64,000 nucleotides of DNA. Origin: an uncultured Planctomycetales bacterium. Its GTDB lineage: Bacteria > Omnitrophota > Gorgyraeia > Zapsychrales > Fredricksoniimonadaceae. The notes below the pieces were generated by a model. The model did no database searches and was not told where the DNA came from. It saw only the letters and a list, made by a program, of their open reading frames with translations. Both the position numbers and the translations under genes were made by a program. Shown here piece after piece: positions 24,547 to 61,046 of the stretch (the stretch's first letter is position 1; every line of letters starts with the position of its first letter). The stretch lies in contig CAZNDZ010000001.1 in NCBI GenBank assembly GCA_964572155.1, positions 974,290-1,038,289 of the forward strand. Reading direction: 5' to 3'.

Positions 24547-26211
<1,665 letters not shown>

Positions 26212-29202: not shown

Positions 29203-29292
29203 GGAGAGGTGGCCGAGTGGTTGAAGGCGCACGCCTGGAAAGCGTGTGGACGTGAAAGCGTCTCGAGAGTTCGAATCTCTCCTTCTCCGCCA
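29203..29292 (+). tRNA. tRNA-Ser (anticodon GGA)
   Basis: GGAGAGG..CTTCTCC acceptor, long variable arm, anticodon loop CTGGAAA, GTTCGAATC T-loop, GCCA end; 7 nt after ABC-F stop. Confidence 0.85.
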
Positions 29293-29303
29293 GATTTTTC
29301 TCT

Positions 29304-29398
29304 AAGCGTTAGTTCACCAACCTGAAGGAGGGGAACTAACGCAATACTAGAGAAAAATCAAGGATGCCTGTGAGCCAACAGGCGAGTAGGCGCCGCCA
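29304..29398 (+). ncRNA. conserved structured element (copy 1): hairpin + conserved 3' module ending GGCGCCGCCA
   Basis: ~85% identical to 57674..57769 in the 3' 60 nt; 5' hairpin GCGTTAGTTC/GAACTAACGC covaries with the GCGATGAACTTTT/AAAAGTTTATCGC stem in copy 2. Confidence 0.45.
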
Positions 29399-29420
29399 GT
29401 CCCCGCACAGAGCATGGACA

Positions 29421-29438
29421 GACGAGTCGGCGCCGCCA
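29421..29438 (+). repeat. partial tandem reiteration of the element 3' motif (GACGAGTCGGCGCCGCCA)
   Basis: Near-duplicate of GGCGAGTAGGCGCCGCCA 23 nt downstream of copy 1. Confidence 0.4.
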
Positions 29439-29599
29439 GCCACGGATTAAGTCCCGCGCAAATACATTCATCATTTTTCCCTCTTAATAAATCATCTCCA
29501 ATTCTTTTACACACATCTATACTTTCTTAAAAAGTTAGTTATAGTAATAAATGGTATGGTTTTCATAAGATCAAAGATTTTAAGAAATAATAGAAAATT

Positions 29600-55243: not shown

Positions 55244-55786
55244 ATGAAAACACAGGTAATGGTAGGGTTAGTCGCAGTCTTAGTGGTGGGGAGTTTTATA
55301 GTCAAAGCTGGTGCAGAAGAAACTACTGGTAAGGAAGCTTGGGGTCAAATACGTGAGGAAGGTAAAGCCGCGCGTGCAGAAGAAATGGCATTACGTCAAC
55401 AAGCAAGAGAAGCATATCAATCTGGGGATATAGAGAAAGCAAAAGCCTTAAGGGCTCAATTGAAAGAAACACATCAAGCTAATATGAAGGAGTTCAAGGA
55501 AAAACGTGGTGAACTTCGAGAAAAAAGACGTGAAATGATGGATAAGCGAGAAGATCGTTTTGATCGACGTGAAGATGTTCGTGATCGTCGTGAAGATGTT
55601 AGAGATCGTTTAGAAGATAAATATGACGCCACTCATGATGGTGGTCGCTTAGATAAAATCGAAGATCGCAGGGATCGTCGTGAGGATGTGCGTGATCACC
55701 GTGAAGATGTCCGTGATCACAGCGAAGATCGTCGTGAAAGACGTCGTGAAGCCGGTGCTGCGCATGGGGGTAAAAAGAGAAAATAG
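55244..55786 (+). CDS. secreted highly charged repeat protein (REDVRD(R/H) heptad repeats)
   Basis: Signal peptide; C-terminal tandem REDVRDR repeats encoded by 21-nt DNA repeats. Confidence 0.45.
   Translation: MKTQVMVGLVAVLVVGSFIVKAGAEETTGKEAWGQIREEGKAARAEEMALRQQAREAYQSGDIEKAKALRAQLKETHQANMKEFKEKRGELREKRREMMDKREDRFDRREDVRDRREDVRDRLEDKYDATHDGGRLDKIEDRRDRREDVRDHREDVRDHSEDRRERRREAGAAHGGKKRK
55557..55745 (+). repeat. 21-nt in-frame tandem repeats (CGTGAAGATGTTCGTGATCGT-like)
   Basis: Imperfect direct repeats coding R-E-D-V-R-D-R. Confidence 0.6.
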
Positions 55787-55893: not shown

Positions 55894-55988
55894 GGAGAGG
55901 TGGCCAGCAAAGCTAGAAATAACACTGTGGAAGCTTGCACTACTTCACCAGTTTTTCTAGAATTTGATATAGTAATTTAGTTGTAACT

Positions 55989-56080
55989 GGAGAGGTGGCA
56001 GAGTGGCTGAATGCAATTGCCTGCTAAGCAATTGACCTGGGTAACTGGGTCCTCGGGTTCGAATCCCGACCTCTCCGCCA
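55989..56080 (+). tRNA. tRNA-Ser (anticodon GCT)
   Basis: GGAGAGG..CCTCTCC acceptor, anticodon loop CTGCTAA, long variable arm, GTTCGAATCC, GCCA. Confidence 0.85.
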
Positions 56081-56163
56081 TTTTATTAGGTGAACCGTCC
56101 GTCGAGGAGTGGGGCGGAAATCGCCCATACTAATTGTGGACGCGAACCCTGAGGAAAAAGATT

Positions 56164-56523
56164 ATGGCAGTAAAATTTAAAAAGCTTACACCGAATTTAA
56201 TTGTTTCTGAATTGGATGAACTGATTTCACCCGAACTGGTATTTACCAATCATCTCGGCCAAATTATGTCGAAGCAGGATGACCTTAGTGCGCACCGTTC
56301 CGGTTTTATAAAGAGCAGATCCATTGAACAGGCTGAGCAACAAGTTTTGTGTAAGGGGGACATTGCAATTGTTTCAGTCCTGTCACATATCGTTGGAGAG
56401 ATAGACGGTGTACGGTCTGATGCCGCTTTGCGTTATACGCGTATCTGGCGAAAAAGAAAGTTCGGGATATGGCAGGTCGTTGTTGCACATTCAATCTTGG
56501 TTAACAAAGGAAACTTATGCTGA
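56164..56523 (+). CDS. NTF2-like/SnoaL-like (DUF4440-type) small protein
   Basis: 119 aa from the ATG with SD GAGGAAAAAG; C-terminal YTRIWRKRKFGIWQVVVAHS pattern; elevated GC and CTG/CCG codons. Confidence 0.45.
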   Translation: MAVKFKKLTPNLIVSELDELISPELVFTNHLGQIMSKQDDLSAHRSGFIKSRSIEQAEQQVLCKGDIAIVSVLSHIVGEIDGVRSDAALRYTRIWRKRKFGIWQVVVAHSILVNKGNLC

Positions 56524-57446
56524 AAATATTTTGTTTGGCAGGCATATTTTTCCTGTTTGTTGCGCATGCGGCCTTGGCGCAAGGAGAATTAAAGGCGAAA
56601 ATTGAACGAATTATTTCTCCAGTGAAGGCGAAAGTTGGTGTTTCCATCCTGGCGATAGAAGATAAAGTGACCGTAAACGTTAATGGCGGAAAGCAATTCC
56701 CTATGCAGAGTGTTTTTAAATTTCCTATCGCCCTGGCTGTTCTGGGCGAAGTGGACAAAGGACGGTTTTCTCTGGAACAGGAGATCAATATACGTAAAAA
56801 CGATCTTCTGCCGGATACCTGGAGCCCAATTCGTGAGAAATATCCGGACGGTGTAAAAATGTCTTTGGCCGAGGTGATTAAATATACCGTGGCGGAAAGC
56901 GATAATAACGGATGTGATATTCTCTTGCGACTTCTTGGAGGTCCATCAACAGTTAATAATTATATACACAGCCTTGGCATCAAGGGGTTCTCTGTCCAGT
57001 TCAACGAAAAAGAAATGCATGAGAAATGGAGTGCCCAGTTTTCCAATTTGACAAATCCTGCGGCCGCCGCCGAATTGCTTAGGACTTTTTATGTAGGAAG
57101 CATTTTATCCCGGAAAAATTTTGATTTTCTTTGGAATGTTATGACGGAAACAAAGACAGGGAAGAACAGGATCAAAGGCCAGTTGCCAGAGGGGACTTCG
57201 GTTGCACATAAAACAGGGACGTCCGACACGAATGAGGAAGGCCTGACGGCTGCCGTCAACGATGTGGGCATCGTGACCTTGCCTGATGGTAAACATTTTG
57301 CCATTGCCGTATTTGTTTCAAATTCGAGAGAGGATATCATCACGAATGAAAAAGTTATAGCGGACGTTTCCCGGGCTGCATGGGATTATTTCGTGGAACG
57401 GAAGAATAACGGTTCGCTTTCGCTTCAAAATAGCGTGAATAAATAA
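56517..57446 (+). CDS. Ambler class A beta-lactamase, Bacteroidetes CepA/CblA/CfxA-like (subclass A2)
   Basis: SVFK (SxxK), SDN (AESDNNGCD), KTG (HKTGTSD), LPDGKHFAIAVFV; signal peptide; higher GC and codon usage unlike flanks. Confidence 0.9.
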   Translation: MLKIFCLAGIFFLFVAHAALAQGELKAKIERIISPVKAKVGVSILAIEDKVTVNVNGGKQFPMQSVFKFPIALAVLGEVDKGRFSLEQEINIRKNDLLPDTWSPIREKYPDGVKMSLAEVIKYTVAESDNNGCDILLRLLGGPSTVNNYIHSLGIKGFSVQFNEKEMHEKWSAQFSNLTNPAAAAELLRTFYVGSILSRKNFDFLWNVMTETKTGKNRIKGQLPEGTSVAHKTGTSDTNEEGLTAAVNDVGIVTLPDGKHFAIAVFVSNSREDIITNEKVIADVSRAAWDYFVERKNNGSLSLQNSVNK

Positions 57447-57673
57447 AAAGCATGGAGGGTTTTGAATTAAGCCGTTTTTGCAGGGATTCTTATAGAATTT
57501 AACCGTTTTTGTGATAAAACACCTTTTATATACGGTCGGGTATTGTCGATTGGCCCTCCTAAGGATATCAGTGCTCCCATACTACGTTTACGGTAGAGTT
57601 TTATAAGTAGCGGTATCTCAAGGGGTTGTAGGGTTCGCCTACCGTCTACAATTACCCGCCAGTTTCTTTCCAA

Positions 57674-57769
57674 AAGCGATGAACTTTTAACCCGAAGGGA
57701 AAAGTTTATCGCAATACTAGATGAAGAAACCAGGATGCCTACGAGCCAACAGGCGAGTAGGCGCCGCCA
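57674..57769 (+). ncRNA. conserved structured element (copy 2)
   Basis: See copy 1; hairpin GCGATGAACTTTT/AAAAGTTTATCGC then CAATACTAGA..AGGATGCCTACGAGCCAACAGGCGAGTAGGCGCCGCCA. Confidence 0.45.
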
Positions 57770-57773
57770 TCAT

Positions 57774-57822
57774 GGATCTAATCGCAAGTCATTGTAGGGT
57801 AATGGCTTGCGATTTTGTGTTT
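57774..57822 (+). repeat. direct-repeat element A (GGATCTAATCGCAAGTCA core + 8-bp hairpin + T-run)
   Basis: 18-nt core identical to 58601..58618; ATCGCAAG/CTTGCGAT stem followed by TTTGTGTTTG. Confidence 0.55.
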
Positions 57823-57930
57823 GTATTTGAAATTAATTGGTGCCCAAATGATTATTCTTCATTGTTGGAAATTTGATTAAAAGGATTTTTGTTGGTTCGG
57901 GTAATTAGAAAATGATATACTAAATAACTT

Positions 57931-58401
57931 ATGAAAGTTCCTCGCATCTACATTGATACATCTGTCATCGGTGGTTGTTTTGACGCTGAGTTTGCGAAGT
58001 GGTCTAATGGTTTGATGAAAGATTTTAGATTGGGGCATTTTAAACCGATCGTCTCAGATATTGTTACTGTTGAGTTGATTAAAGCGCCGGAACAAGTCAG
58101 AAAGAAATATGCTGAATTAATTGAAAACGGTGCTGAGAGAATTGAAGAAAATGAGAAGGTTGATCGACTTGTGCAAGTTTATAGTAAACGAAAGATTCTA
58201 AGTGAGAAGTTTACTAATGACATGATTCATATTGCATTGGCAACCGTATATGATGTTGATTTGGTGGTTAGTTGGAATTTTAAGCACATCGTGCATTTTG
58301 ACAAGATTAGACAGTTTAATGCAGTTAATAAGGAATTAGGACATAAACTTATCCAGATTCTTTCTCCTCGGGAGGTTACGAATTATGAAGAAGAAATTTG
58401 A
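57931..58401 (+). CDS. PIN-domain protein (putative toxin/RNase)
   Basis: N-terminal IYIDTSVIGG (PIN Asp motif), conserved acidic residues downstream; 156 aa. Confidence 0.6.
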   Translation: MKVPRIYIDTSVIGGCFDAEFAKWSNGLMKDFRLGHFKPIVSDIVTVELIKAPEQVRKKYAELIENGAERIEENEKVDRLVQVYSKRKILSEKFTNDMIHIALATVYDVDLVVSWNFKHIVHFDKIRQFNAVNKELGHKLIQILSPREVTNYEEEI

Positions 58402-58552
58402 TGCCGTTCAAATGGTAAGAGAAATACGTGATAATTTGTATAAGGAAACTAAACGGATGACCGGTAAAGAGCGTATTAATTTTTATCGTCAAAAAGCCAA
58501 AGAATTTTATGTAGAATTGGGTCTTAAAGAACCTGTAGCTAAGACTCGTTAA
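58385..58552 (+). CDS. small ORF (55 aa) overlapping PIN gene stop; putative cognate partner/antitoxin
   Basis: Not in ORF track (<60 aa); ATG at 58385 overlaps PIN stop by 17 nt in +1 frame; basic helical peptide MKKKFDAVQMVREIRDNLYKE.. Confidence 0.4.
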   Translation: MKKKFDAVQMVREIRDNLYKETKRMTGKERINFYRQKAKEFYVELGLKEPVAKTR

Positions 58553-58600
58553 TCGGTGCCCAAAAGGTGCCAATCTCAATCACAAACATCGGATTTTATC

Positions 58601-58652
58601 GGATCTAATCGCAAGTCAATCGTATATATTGGTTTGCGATTTTTCTTTTTTT
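58601..58652 (+). repeat. direct-repeat element B (GGATCTAATCGCAAGTCA core + hairpin + T-run)
   Basis: Matches element A; ATCGCAA/TTGCGAT stem + TTTTTCTTTTTTT. Confidence 0.55.
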
Positions 58653-58689: not shown

Positions 58690-58992
58690 ATGATAGACGT
58701 TGACACAAAAATTCAAATGTTTGCCGTGATCGCGGAGGCTCGCAGGGTGTTTCCTTTTAATGTGCCTGTTGCTTGCCATTGTGAAGGGCGATGTGATGAG
58801 TGTTTGTTTAAATTGCTTGAGTTGTTGGAGATTGATTTAGATAATTGGAATGATAGGTTAAAACGTGGTGAAATTCCTCGTTCGATAGATATTCAAGTTT
58901 TAGAGGGTTATTGTCGGGATGTTACTGAAGTCTTGATCAAGGATGGGTATCAGCTGTTGTCGTCAGGTTGGGTAAAGGGAGCTAATGTTTAA
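58690..58992 (+). CDS. small Cys-rich hypothetical protein (CxCx3Cx2C)
   Basis: 100 aa; CHCEGRCDEC cluster; stop overlaps class D beta-lactamase start. Confidence 0.35.
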   Translation: MIDVDTKIQMFAVIAEARRVFPFNVPVACHCEGRCDECLFKLLELLEIDLDNWNDRLKRGEIPRSIDIQVLEGYCRDVTEVLIKDGYQLLSSGWVKGANV

Positions 58993-59782
58993 ACGCCTAA
59001 CATTTATAACGGTATTGTTTATATACACATTCCTACCCATATCTTTGAAAGCTGAGGCCATAGATGCATCATTATTTCAGCCGTATCACGCGGCCATGGT
59101 TATTTATAATCGCACTTCTGGTGAGATGGTAGATATTAATCCTGAACTTGGACAGCGAAAATTAGCCCCGTGCTCAACGTTCAAAATTTATAATACTTTA
59201 ATTGGGCTTGAATTAGGGTTGCTTAAAGGGCCTGATGATCCTTGGTATACATGGGACGGAGTTGTTCGTGATATTGAGGGGTGGAATAAAGATTTAACGT
59301 TGCGTGAAGCATTTGCGGTTTCTGCGGTTCCAGCTTATCAGAATTTAGCACGGCAAATTGGCGAAACCCGAATGAAAGATTATATCAATCTCCTTAATTA
59401 TGGTTCACGGGACACTTCTTCCGGGATTGATGTTTTCTGGTTGCCACGTCCAAATACCATGCCGATTACTATTAGCGCACAAGAACAGGTGAGTTTGCTA
59501 AATCAACTGCTTGATCTGAAATTACCTTTTCATCAAGAAAATATTGCTATCTTAAAAGATGTGATGAAAGTGATGAGTACAGAAAAGGGAACCCTTTATG
59601 GTAAAACCGGGTCGGGAATGAATGCGGATGGAAAATGGAATTTGGGGTGGTTTGTTGGGTTTCTTGAAAGTGGCGGCACAACGTATGTTTTTGCATGTAA
59701 TATTACCAAGGGTAAAGAGCCATCAGGGAAGGTTGCCCGCGAAATTGTTAAAAATGTTTTTAAATCACAAGGTCTTTTATGA
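58985..59782 (+). CDS. class D (OXA-type) beta-lactamase
   Basis: Signal peptide; STFK, SAV, YGS(YGN-like), KTG, WFVG (WxxG) motifs in canonical order; 265 aa. Confidence 0.8.
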   Translation: MFKRLTFITVLFIYTFLPISLKAEAIDASLFQPYHAAMVIYNRTSGEMVDINPELGQRKLAPCSTFKIYNTLIGLELGLLKGPDDPWYTWDGVVRDIEGWNKDLTLREAFAVSAVPAYQNLARQIGETRMKDYINLLNYGSRDTSSGIDVFWLPRPNTMPITISAQEQVSLLNQLLDLKLPFHQENIAILKDVMKVMSTEKGTLYGKTGSGMNADGKWNLGWFVGFLESGGTTYVFACNITKGKEPSGKVAREIVKNVFKSQGLL

Positions 59783-60444
59783 TGAGGAATGGTTTGTTGC
59801 GATACATAATTTTTATATTGGTATCTGTTATAGGTTTAGTTTTGTTTGGAAGGCTTGGTTTAACTGAAAGTAAAGCGCCAACTTCATTTAAGCACGTTCC
59901 GTTACAATATATCGTTGCATTGGGTGACCCGTCCACAAGTTCAGGGGTAGGTGCAGAAACGTGGGGGTTGTGGAATGAGGATCCGGGGCCTCGAGGTTGT
60001 CGGTTGGAGCATTATGATACGTTAAAAGCGGCAGGTGGTATCGCGCCGGCACAATGGAAATTTGATGATCAAGATTGGTGGTTGGAAGAGCATGGCGTGA
60101 TGATGGAAAAGCCTATCTTTCCTTTACCAGCTGGAAAGTATGTAGTCACAGGTGGTCGAGAAGTGACAACGGTGTTGACGATCTTTCCTAAAGATAAGGA
60201 AGGGGTGGTCCGTTGGTCATTAGAGAATGGCGCCAAACTTTATGATGTAACTCATTTGCCATGCCATGCAGCACGCTATACTCCGTTAAAACAAAATGTC
60301 CCATGTTCTCCTAAAATGGCGCCAAATGCAATTTTTCCCGTTGCGCCAGGTGTTCCTATGCCATCCATTGATGGATGCAATAAACAAGAATACGCGGTAC
60401 TTTTTGTTATTGGCGTTGAGGTTAAAAACAAGGAGGCTCAATGA
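59779..60444 (+). CDS. membrane-anchored hypothetical protein
   Basis: 221 aa; N-terminal TM; ATGA overlap with upstream gene. Confidence 0.4.
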   Translation: MMRNGLLRYIIFILVSVIGLVLFGRLGLTESKAPTSFKHVPLQYIVALGDPSTSSGVGAETWGLWNEDPGPRGCRLEHYDTLKAAGGIAPAQWKFDDQDWWLEEHGVMMEKPIFPLPAGKYVVTGGREVTTVLTIFPKDKEGVVRWSLENGAKLYDVTHLPCHAARYTPLKQNVPCSPKMAPNAIFPVAPGVPMPSIDGCNKQEYAVLFVIGVEVKNKEAQ

Positions 60445-61046
60445 GAGTAAAATTATTTTTTGTCATGTTGATGACAGCTTTGGTCGTACCCCAATTGGTT
60501 TTTGCCGATGTTAATTTAAGGCCTAAAACACCAGCAGAGTGGCAAGAATATTTGCGTTATCGTCGTAATCAAACCTTAGAAGATTTATATAAAGTAAGGC
60601 CTGAGGCGCGTTGGGAAATTGCAAAAGCTAAAGGGTATGCAACGTTTACAAGTTTGAATGTAAATCTGTTGTTAGCTAGCATGTCGGGTGGTCGAGGGAT
60701 TTTGCATGAAAATGGTGTGATTGGTAAAGACACTTTCATGCGCATGGCTCAAGGCGGGCTCGGTTTAGGTTTGGGGGTAAAAGATTTTCGCGCGGTTTTT
60801 ATTTTTGATAATAAAGAAGTAATGAATCGGTTTTTAAATAGTGGCTGGTCGTTTGGTGGTGAGGCAGATGCGGCCATCAAAGGTGGTGGTGAGGGTGCAT
60901 CGACCAGCGGGGCGATCACGATCGCGCCAGGATTAAGGGTGTATCAGTTAACAGAGAATGGTTTGGCATTACAAGCAACAGTGCATGGGACGAAGTATTG
61001 GCGTGATGCATATGTTAACGGCGATAAAGGCGCTAAAGACAAATAA
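60441..61046 (+). CDS. secreted SYLF-like (DUF500/Ysc84-like) Gly-rich protein
   Basis: Signal peptide; GGLGLGLG and FGGEADAAIKGGGEG glycine-rich blocks. Confidence 0.45.
   Translation: MRVKLFFVMLMTALVVPQLVFADVNLRPKTPAEWQEYLRYRRNQTLEDLYKVRPEARWEIAKAKGYATFTSLNVNLLLASMSGGRGILHENGVIGKDTFMRMAQGGLGLGLGVKDFRAVFIFDNKEVMNRFLNSGWSFGGEADAAIKGGGEGASTSGAITIAPGLRVYQLTENGLALQATVHGTKYWRDAYVNGDKGAKDK

Follow-up and report, generated by a model that had tools for sequence, protein, structure and literature searches.

How does a beta-lactamase gene come to stand directly behind a serine tRNA gene of an uncultured bacterium, with no integrase beside it? The question is raised by a stretch of 64,000 nucleotides (nt) from contig CAZNDZ010000001.1 (assembly GCA_964572155.1), here called the window, in whose own numbering all coordinates are given unless a locus is named. 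A first-pass annotation, made from the letters of the window alone, had described an NTF2-like gene and a class A beta-lactamase gene (bla) of Bacteroidetes type as a foreign cassette acquired site-specifically at tRNA-Ser(GCT), with no integrase nearby, in a host that is not itself a member of the Bacteroidetes. Our analysis supports the core of this proposal, chiefly through the different contexts in which the same two genes recur, and recovers the genes, motifs, tRNA and post-tRNA element that had been named; the argument from base composition held only in part. The best explanation, which we consider probable, is that the two genes form a discrete and recently mobile cassette without a recombinase of its own, placed right after the discriminator base (G73) of tRNA-Ser(GCT) by a recombinase acting in trans and expressed by read-through. 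The host was rightly said not to be a Bacteroidetes: the named relatives of its GroEL (24565-26208) are all metagenome-assembled genomes of Candidatus Omnitrophota/Omnitrophica, at 83-89% identity, with no other named taxon among them, and a scan of species-representative genomes with the M16 peptidase returned only distant Omnitrophota, at ~34% identity.

Boundaries and contexts of the cassette

The locus comprises the following features, numbered as in the window.

55989..56080, + strand: tRNA-Ser(GCT), CCA included (ARAGORN; Rfam 59.5 bits)
55989..56077, + strand: docking site, tRNA-Ser(GCT) through discriminator base G73 at 56077 (ARAGORN, Rfam, junction alignments)
56056-56061, + strand: T-loop box GGTTCG of tRNA-Ser(GCT)
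56078..57658, + strand: mobile cassette of 1581 nt, made up of CCA, left module, DUF4440 gene, bla and right module (...ACCCG)
56078..56150, + strand: left module, with CCA, a T-rich part, GTGAACC, small hairpins and the box AATTGTGGACGCGAACCCT
56132-56150, + strand: left-module box AATTGTGGACGCGAACCCT, an inverted copy of the right-module box
56151-56154, + strand: GAGG before the DUF4440 gene, Shine-Dalgarno-like
56164..56523, + strand: DUF4440/NTF2-like gene, 119 amino acids (aa) (Pfam PF14534)
56517..57446, + strand: predicted subclass-A2 class A beta-lactamase gene (bla), 309 aa (NCBIfam NF012099)
57503..57658, + strand: right module, a conserved part of the family's cassettes (array L053 has three homologous copies; 93-sequence alignment)
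57630-57653, + strand: right-module box AGGGTTCG-CCTAC-CGTCTACAATT
57654-57658, + strand: right-module terminus ACCCG
57659..57661, + strand: host-encoded CCA, pushed away from the tRNA by the insertion

The tRNA and the DUF4440 open reading frame (ORF) are separated by 83 nt of non-coding sequence, and the stop codon of the DUF4440 gene overlaps the start of bla by 7 nt. Thirteen independent contigs that encode the exact bla or DUF4440 protein (from Logan, ENA, JGI and one NCBI record, representing different samples and assemblers) were compared with the window by blastn. They match it at 99-100% identity only over ~56054/56078 to 57658 and diverge beyond; in L003-L010 and L050-L052 (loci are cited by L numbers throughout) identity at this level is confined to 56078-57658. 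Because the identity is restricted to that span between differing flanks, the inserted unit is 56078-57658, 1581 nt long. The two-gene cassette described earlier is thus real, while its extent, given as 56134-57446, had been drawn too narrowly and ended at the bla stop codon.

On the left, the common sequence starts CCA/TTTTATTAGGTGAACC..., where a slash marks the junction here and below. It is preceded by six different contexts, all joined as CCG-CCA: five are distinct tRNA 3' ends, namely CCCGACCTCTCCG (the window), CCCTGCCTCTCCG, CCCGTCCACCCCG and, in two versions that differ in their T-loops, CCCTCCCTCTCCG, and the sixth is the right end of a different cassette, GTAGGGTTCGCCTACCGTCCACGACTACCCG, which is the left neighbour in L008 and L050. 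On the right, identity runs through ...CCGTCTACAATTACCCG (57658) and is followed by seven unrelated sequences, some with a guanine-plus-cytosine (GC) content of 0.485-0.488 versus 0.41 for the window. That identical copies are joined with single-base precision to six different sequences on the left and seven on the right bears out site-specific acquisition directly 3' of tRNA-Ser(GCT).

That the DUF4440 gene and bla are native and never moved, their varied contexts being assembly breaks or chimeras at a repeated tRNA, is hardly credible in the light of these junctions. Many of the contigs do end inside or beside a tRNA, and assemblers built on De Bruijn graphs break contigs at repeats; yet the junctions are read through in independent sources and assemblies (Logan, ENA, JGI and the NCBI record), distinct T-arm sequences abut the identical cassette, the seven right flanks extend up to 1.9 kb, and the codon usage of bla is an outlier.

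The point of insertion can be read from unoccupied genes. Many unoccupied tRNA-Ser genes in contigs of the cassette family carry no encoded CCA and read ...CTCCG/TTTTTTCGCC..., ...CTCTCCG/TTTTTTCGCCAAAGGCGAAAAAAC... or ...CCG/AAAATTTTCCCG..., and the hairpin sequences found behind empty tRNA-Ser genes also directly follow the right-module end ...ACTACCCG/ (ACCCG/). An orthologous pair shows both states. In the empty member, L060, tRNA-Arg and tadA are followed by tRNA-Ser(GCT) ending ...CTCTCCG/AAAATTTTCCCGATAAGGGAAAATTTGAGGACACTGAAGCGAGCG, with no encoded CCA; the occupied member, L080, reads ...CTCTCCG/CCA-[2.2 kb]-ACTACCCG/AAAGATTTCCCGACAAGGGAAATTTTGAGGGCACTCAAGTGAGCG, and its downstream flank is homologous to that of L060. 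From this pair and the junction sequences we place the crossover directly behind the discriminator base. Elsewhere, the sequence at the right junction is that which came after G73 in the host concerned, and the alignments indicate that the cassette brings the CCA in, while the host sequence once behind G73 ends up after ...ACCCG. In the window the host also encodes a CCA (57659-57661), so the cassette boundaries are ambiguous by 3 nt there; tRNA-Ser(GCT) is still called intact by ARAGORN with the cassette-borne CCA. Comparison with syntenic relatives yielded the L060/L080 pair within the family, and no such pair for the cassette of the window itself: exact look-ups of the flanking proteins returned the same genome only, and the closest relative contig, L179, stops before the tRNA.

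The distribution of encoded CCA deserves a comment of its own. In L057, L060, L095, L102, L154, L155 and others, empty tRNA-Ser genes often lack it, and occupied ones have that of the cassette; since the CCA is newly supplied, insertion would change the 3'-end maturation that the tRNA requires. A few cassettes (L075, L162 and L167) have no CCA.

The flanks that the cassette separated include three further features.

55894..55905, + strand: tRNA-Ser 5'-like 12-nt string GGAGAGGTGGCC, equal to the 5' end of tRNA-Ser(GGA), outside the cassette
57676-57712, + strand: native post-tRNA-Ser hairpin
57723-57769, + strand: native post-tRNA-Ser conserved element, ending in GCCGCCA

A conserved post-tRNA-Ser element had been noted behind the cassette, and the analysis confirms it: 57723-57769 has an 89%-identical copy, 29352-29398, at a comparable distance behind the unoccupied tRNA-Ser(GGA) of the window (29203-29292, reading ...CTCCGCCA/GATTTTT). 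When the cassette is deleted in silico, tRNA-Ser(GCT) comes to lie directly before the hairpin and conserved element, as is seen behind tRNA-Ser(GGA), which indicates that 57676-57769 stood right behind tRNA-Ser(GCT) before the insertion. The 5' string at 55894-55905 had been read as a further trace of acquisition. The string is present, but it is not a scar of this insertion: a tRNA-Ser 5'-like stretch, GGAGAGGTG...GAAGCTTGCACTACTTCACCA (L179:3699-3707), occupies the same position upstream of the tRNA site in the relative L179, whose sigma factor is only 68% identical, so that we regard it as a conserved leader feature. It could be a leader or regulatory element.

A motif, ACAG[G/A]CGAGT[A/C]GGCGCCGCCA, occurs as a tandem pair behind tRNA-Ser(GGA) (29378-29439) and singly behind the cassette (57749-57770). 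It ends in GCCGCCA, which resembles the insertion target, and comparable GGCGAGATCTCGCC...GGCGGATCCGCCA elements lie 3' of tRNA-Ser genes in L058 and L083. The motif may serve as a secondary place of docking, or else in processing or termination.

A family of cassettes behind tRNA-Ser genes

A scan of metagenome contigs with a degenerate right-end motif, GGTTCG-N5-CGTC.AC.A.TACCCG, recovered at least 120 contigs. Nhmmer models were then used for both ends, those of the left module covering its two commonest types only. Among the matches listed, to which the module counts and spans below refer, there are at least 136 right modules in at least 114 loci and at least 51 left modules, all of them co-oriented (51/51 left, 136/136 right). 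The left modules are preceded by an intact tRNA-Ser (17), the right module of an earlier cassette (16) or other ...CCGCCA ends (15), the last including tRNA-Ser 3' fragments and a second right-end family. From the start of a left module to the end of the next right module, 42 spans measure 541-3497 nt (median 1087 nt), and at least 18 loci hold two or three right modules. In 45 loci that contain a tRNA, the module usually lies 0.5-3.5 kb 3' of a tRNA-Ser on the same strand, with anticodon GCT, GGA, TGA or CGA, and ...CCG precedes almost every junction. The window has a single match to each module, left at 56075-56149 (E-value (E) 5.9e-20; the left module is also seen in the family alignment) and right at 57521-57661 (E 2.5e-37), and nhmmer found no further cassettes downstream of 57.7 kb in it. 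The array L053 is the clearest example of tandem arrangement. Three homologous copies of 57503-57658 separate a bla gene with a SnoaL gene, a class D beta-lactamase gene and a further gene, and each of its two internal right modules is followed by CCA and left-end sequence like 56081-56150; of these left-end copies, the one leading into the class D cassette is shorter and has diverged further. Its bla product is 71% identical to that of the window, and its class D enzyme 68% identical to the product of window gene 58985-59782. Taken together, the alignments describe a large family of cassettes docking singly or in arrays behind tRNA-Ser genes, always in the orientation of the tRNA.

Host genes in the family loci include serS, tadA, dnaX, recR and a type II secretion ATPase. 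Those that were compared show micro-synteny with the window versions at 47-67% identity, which would place the family loci in the same phylum as the window host.

The family appears in more forms than one. A second right-end family (...GTTCGAAC...ACACCG/CCA) also stands before left modules in L125, L126, L155, L158 and L138, and left modules come in three types or more, distinguished by ...AATTGTGGACGCGAACCC, by ...GGGGATTCGAAC or by the start TTGTTGACGCTCAGGCGAACCC. The right-end motif scan covers only part of the system.

Cargo genes encode methyltransferases, DNA methylases, a glyoxalase-like protein, a cupin, an SDR protein, an alpha/beta hydrolase, TPR and membrane proteins, Bro-N proteins, HNH homing-type and GIY-YIG nucleases, and three more A2 beta-lactamases. 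A Bro-N protein is typical cargo of cassettes whose left end is of the TTGTTGACGC type (L073, L080, L117, L132, L141, L161 and L163); in several Bro-N cassettes an HNH endonuclease with homing-endonuclease-associated repeats follows, and GIY-YIG proteins are also recurrent. Selfish nucleases appear to ride in the cassettes or to help move them. One could therefore ask whether the cassettes spread by homologous recombination between their conserved flanking modules, possibly stimulated by such cassette-borne homing endonucleases, and besides this recurrent cargo, L004 would fit, as it has the same cargo and right module as the window although the first ~65 nt of its left module have diverged. 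We consider this improbable, as an empty tRNA-Ser site offers no right-hand homology and yet the junctions are base-precise after G73 with unrelated flanks, and as the identical left module abuts six different upstream sequences.

In several respects the family resembles integron cassettes: its units of ~0.5-3.5 kb are mostly promoterless and hold one to three genes, a conserved module of recombination type closes each unit at its 3' end, a single docking site beside a strong promoter (putative here) is followed by co-oriented tandem arrays, and the cargo is miscellaneous and adaptive, here class A and class D beta-lactamases, methyltransferases, toxin-like genes and cupins. Unlike those of integrons, the modules are longer, conserved in sequence and split over both ends (~70 nt and ~140-190 nt), the tRNA-Ser 3' end replaces attI, no integrase gene is adjacent, and the host phylum is Omnitrophota. 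No attC core pair (RYYYAAC...GTTRRRY) occurs on either strand of 55981-57800, the cassette junctions are CCG/CCA-TTTTATT and ACCCG/CCA and not the G/TT of integrons, and the neighbours of the window's cassette are annotated as other than intI. Tycheposons of Prochlorococcus are alike in another way, as they integrate at tRNA 3' ends (tRNA-Ser among them), leave the tRNA intact and push older elements distally by successive integrations. They carry their own tyrosine recombinase, and their attachment sites of ~40 nt are partial tRNAs (bioRxiv 10.1101/2020.12.28.424599). The present cassettes, in contrast, lack an integrase, have a shared core of CCG(CCA) alone and carry end modules in place of a partial tRNA; besides the GGTTCG box, which lies at a different spacing, the right end GGGTTCGCCTACCGTCTACAATTACCCG has only its terminal CCG(CCA) in common with the tRNA.

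These comparisons bear on whether the unit is a classical element after all, either an integron cassette (attC x attI, by IntI) or the remnant of an integrase-bearing island or prophage that targets tRNAs. Small, promoterless, co-oriented genes in arrays with miscellaneous cargo would suit the former, and insertion at a tRNA 3' end with tandem accretion as in tycheposons the latter. Both are nevertheless very improbable: the attC pair is missing and the boundaries are not at G/TTRRRY, neither IntI nor another integrase was found in the window or in the at least 120 loci, there is no 15-40-nt tRNA direct repeat beyond the shared CCG(CCA), the viral contig collection gave no matches, and 42 of the 42 spans measured fall within 0.5-3.5 kb, too small for an int-bearing element.

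Other readings of the modules were tried and rejected. As a structured RNA (a tRNA-like 3' element or a guide-RNA scaffold), the right module yields essentially no consensus in RNAalifold on 93 copies (-3.8 kcal/mol) and a single-sequence fold z of -0.89; when a tRNA-like fold is imposed on the alignment, just 62% of cells are paired and covariation is unconvincing, and no Rfam match was obtained. A minus-strand ORF over the right module (57467-57673; its ORF cluster recurs in 18 loci) is a by-product of nucleotide conservation, since its wobble positions are invariant and the internal 5-mer freely alters the encoded residues. Covariation between the inverted boxes of the left and right modules amounts to an association that is not strict, with counts inflated by copies of the same cassette. 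The boxes are subterminal, the left one lying 54-72 nt inside the left end and the right one ending 5 nt before the right end, and a Tn7-like mini-element was dismissed because the junctions have neither terminal TGT...ACA inverted repeats nor a 5-bp target duplication. A phage or plasmid origin was set aside, the family motif having no matches in the viral contig collection and the cassette none among the plasmids of PLSDB.

Considering the family as a whole, we lean towards the view that Omnitrophota, and perhaps their relatives, possess a cassette-capture system that is a functional analogue of integrons, with a tRNA-Ser docking site and its promoter, cassette-borne end modules of ~70 nt and ~170 nt, a CCA supplied by the cassette, an unlinked and possibly new recombinase, and a cassette pool that includes class A and class D beta-lactamases. 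The full-text literature that we searched, which largely leaves out subscription journals, holds no description of cassettes docked at tRNA-Ser; two 2026 preprints on Omnitrophota genomes and mobile elements and the tycheposon paper describe none either. If such a system exists, gene capture of the integron kind would have arisen independently of integrons and at other sites, with a tRNA gene as its platform, in a widespread uncultivated phylum of very small cells, and this would account for the way in which genomes so streamlined come by accessory genes. Searches for integrons that depend on attC would miss these cassettes because they have no attC sites; the left and right modules together would provide a simple sequence signature for mining a large hidden cassette pool in metagenomes, and the pool would be a reservoir, in the environment, of mobile genes for beta-lactamases of subclass A2 and class D.

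Proposed mobilisation in trans

The main question raised by the locus is which enzyme recognises the 3' end of tRNA-Ser and inserts DNA exactly after the discriminator base, and the main interest lies in this enzyme and its chemistry. We propose that the cassette would circularise, so that its right-end/left-end junction (~240 bp) forms an attP-like site, and that this site would recombine with the tRNA-Ser 3' end, or with the end of a previous cassette, through an enzyme acting in trans and encoded elsewhere in the genome. Insertion behind the ...CCG end of a previous cassette would build tandem arrays in the orientation of the tRNA, and the tRNA would stay intact because the cassette supplies an encoded CCA. 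Target and cassette end share only CCG and an upstream GGTTCG box, which is found at -22..-17 from the junction in the tRNA (in the T-loop) and at -27..-22 in the right module, where the stretch from the box to the junction includes a variable 5-mer. As single-stranded DNA, the right-end/left-end junction folds better than shuffled sequence (z = -3.2). Relative to the target, the cassette end has its box 5 nt further out, a shift that resembles the half-site geometry of attP and attB in large serine integrases; we give this likeness little weight.

Several points weigh against this proposal. The identity between target and cassette end, CCG alone (with CCA where the host encodes it), is short for a classical tyrosine integrase, and the modules show little conserved secondary structure or covariation. 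A motif screen of ~90 cargo proteins, the at least 120 loci and the window found no recombinase in the cassettes or the window. Neither a circular junction nor an empty site was recovered for this particular cassette and host. The taxonomy of the other loci is drawn from synteny and from host-protein identities of 47-67%, and expression by read-through is suggested by consensus scans only.

The earlier statement that the window contains no integrase agrees with this screen, and the 1581-nt unit holds only the DUF4440 gene and bla. Among ORFs of 90 aa or longer, in the window and in the at least 120 loci alike, none has the tyrosine-recombinase motif pair, and no recombinase was found among the recurrent ORF clusters near the modules. 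The recombinases seen at the listed loci are only large serine ones beside tRNA-Asn genes, ~4.8 kb from the modules. With the loci oriented so that the right module of the cassette reads on the + strand, these genes adjoin tRNA-Asn(GTT) at L073:6312-7766 and L096:4408-6054, a few kb 3' of the modules, and they probably belong to other integrated elements.

Units without a recombinase are known elsewhere. The pdif modules of Acinetobacter plasmids are small resistance or toxin-antitoxin modules that have no recombinase of their own and are presumed to be moved by host enzymes; they are bounded by 28-bp XerC/XerD sites in alternating orientation. The cassettes share with them the lack of a recombinase between bounding recombination sites, and differ in their long asymmetric ends and chromosomal tRNA target. 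IS200/IS605 elements, for their part, insert in a specific orientation 3' of a short sequence, have subterminal hairpins and neither terminal inverted repeats nor a real target duplication, and can be mobilised in trans. Insertion in one orientation 3' of a fixed short target, with no terminal inverted repeat or target duplication, is common to them and the cassettes; in the cassettes, by contrast, no transposase or TnpB was seen, and the hairpins are small and without compensatory changes. Cargo-carrying cassette arrays and specificity for tRNA-Ser are not known from IS200/IS605.

The same cassettes could accordingly be non-autonomous elements that a transposase supplied in trans, of the single-strand 'peel and paste' type (HUH/Y1, IS200/IS605-like) or another, places 3' of a short ..CCG target by recognising subterminal hairpins. 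We regard this as unlikely, although much in the junctions agrees with it. Nearly all insertions are 3' of CCG and in one orientation, the junctions show no terminal inverted repeats and no duplication above 3 nt, and the right end too finishes in CCG; candidate hairpins exist in the left module (CGTCCACA-CTAAT-TGTGGACG) and in the right (GTAGG-GTTCG-CCTAC), yet they are weakly supported and show no compensatory changes. The target lies on the + strand, which is probably the lagging-strand template, as the cumulative GC skew rises across 50-64 kb. No Y1 transposase was seen, the ends of known IS200/IS605 elements are far shorter and less conserved in sequence than those of the cassettes, and insertion is specific for tRNA-Ser, so that more than a 3-nt target would have to be recognised. 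Site-specific integration in trans remains the explanation that we prefer. As to replication, nearly all long ORFs of the window are on the + strand and the cumulative GC skew climbs over the profiled 50-64 kb, as would fit a single leading-strand replichore.

Cargo, composition, expression and neighbouring genes

The 119-aa protein matches Pfam DUF4440 (PF14534; 57.3 bits versus a gathering score of 25.2, E 2.4e-15), within the NTF2-like/SnoaL superfamily. The 309-aa protein matches Pfam Beta-lactamase2 (E 2e-45) and, above the cut-off of 320, the NCBIfam model NF012099 'class A beta-lactamase, subclass A2' (386.9 bits, E 4e-116), and it is predicted to be an enzyme of this subclass. The SxxK, SDN and KTG motifs that had been pointed out in it align with solved A2 enzymes: SVFK (S70-x-x-K), SDNNG (S130-D-N), NEKEMH (E166) and HKTGTS (K234-T-G) fall at the corresponding positions of PDB 6pq8, and the nearest solved structures are the A2 enzymes 6pq8 (E 1.4e-100), 5gs8 (E 1.3e-97) and PER-1 (1e25; E 2.8e-65). 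By eye, the N-terminus of the translation has a hydrophobic segment ending ALA-Q, which reads as a putative Sec-type signal peptide for secretion.

The enzyme had been called Bacteroidetes-type and likened to the CepA, CblA and CfxA families. This stands in so far as it has the A2 model score, catalytic motifs and closest structures of subclass A2 (CGA/CIA, TLA, VEB, PER, CME, CepA, CblA and CfxA) and its named relatives are Bacteroidota (Pedobacter, Arcicella, Adhaeribacter and others). However, it belongs to no named family, scoring below the NCBIfam cut-off for each of CGA/CIA (366.9 bits versus 510), TLA (345.7 versus 640), VEB (302.6 versus 670), PER, CepA (232.2 versus 660), CblA (226.3 versus 625) and CfxA (153.3 versus 625). 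The Bacteroidota relatives are only 56-62% identical, and neither a direct Bacteroidetes donor nor a recent transfer from that group is supported; the nearest matches (64-72%) are metagenomic proteins without a name. The same cassette family carries four homologues at ~71% identity as cargo (L053, L090, L092 and L110), protein P0001 of L053 being the top match, and it seems to be within the cassette pool that the bla lineage diversified. Among PLSDB plasmids none carries this cassette; blaTLA-3 comes closest, matching 45% of the query at 62.7% nucleotide identity.

The DUF4440-bla pair with overlapping frames also occurs in L054 (55% and 67% identity), in an unrelated, gene-dense context. L054:1-14623 is a dense same-strand run of small genes of detoxification or resistance type with little or no intergenic space, encoding acetyltransferases, SnoaL/DUF4440 proteins, a metallo-beta-lactamase-fold protein, the DUF4440-bla pair, a cupin, methyltransferases and a nitroreductase. 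No cassette modules were seen in that run, which could be the source context of the two-gene module. The window has a second beta-lactamase homologue of its own, of class D (OXA-like) with STFK and KTG, at 58985-59782. Its score on the class D model of NCBIfam, 203.6 bits, is under the cut-off of 250, and it sits in a four-gene operon (58690-61046) 1.3 kb 3' of the cassette with no flanking cassette modules; its 68%-identical homologue in the array L053 (1855-2649) is itself a cassette.

A foreign base composition had been claimed for 56134-57446. The codon usage of bla is indeed an outlier: CTG, CCG, GCG and GGC make up 8.4% of its codons versus 4.4 +/- 1.6% (z = 2.6, top of the 44 window genes compared), and among leucine codons it uses TTA at 0.10 and CTG at 0.28, versus 0.43 and 0.05 in the window. 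The shift in GC is modest, however, at 0.436 versus a mean of 0.406 (standard deviation 0.024) for windows of the same size, the 90th percentile; bla alone has z = 1.1 for GC and 1.7 for GC at third codon positions, and the DUF4440 gene is not distinct from the window genes. Judged on composition alone, foreign origin is marginal, and the comparative data make the stronger case.

Two features outside the cassette enter into its expression.

55944..55973, + strand: putative promoter TTCACC-18-TATAGT with TG (consensus scan), 16 nt before the tRNA
57780..57824, + strand: first terminator-like hairpin (57780-57814) and T run 3' of the tRNA and cassette (consensus match only)

In consensus scans the stretch from the tRNA to the first cassette gene has no promoter-like site; the sole one inside the cassette is at the DUF4440/bla junction (56501-56530). 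The left module ends in CCCTGAGG, leading into the Shine-Dalgarno-like GAGG ahead of the first gene. Read-through from the tRNA promoter would be the simplest expression model, the promoterless cargo being transcribed much as integron cassettes are from Pc, with the putative native terminator lying downstream of the insertion at the hairpin that starts at 57780.

Among the neighbours, the gene just 5' of the tRNA (55244-55786) encodes a low-complexity, charged protein with no Pfam match, in which 21-nt periodic repeats at 55520-55750 encode DRREDVRD-like units. Downstream of the cassette, 57833-58641 is a putative second small insertion with a weak PIN-domain gene (57931-58401) and an overlapping 55-aa ORF. 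The stretch with the PIN gene is bracketed by direct repeats TTAAT[T/C]GGTGCCCAAA at 57833-57848 and 58549-58564, and also by two copies of the hairpin AATCGCAAGTCA...TTGCGATT (57780-57814 and 58607-58641).

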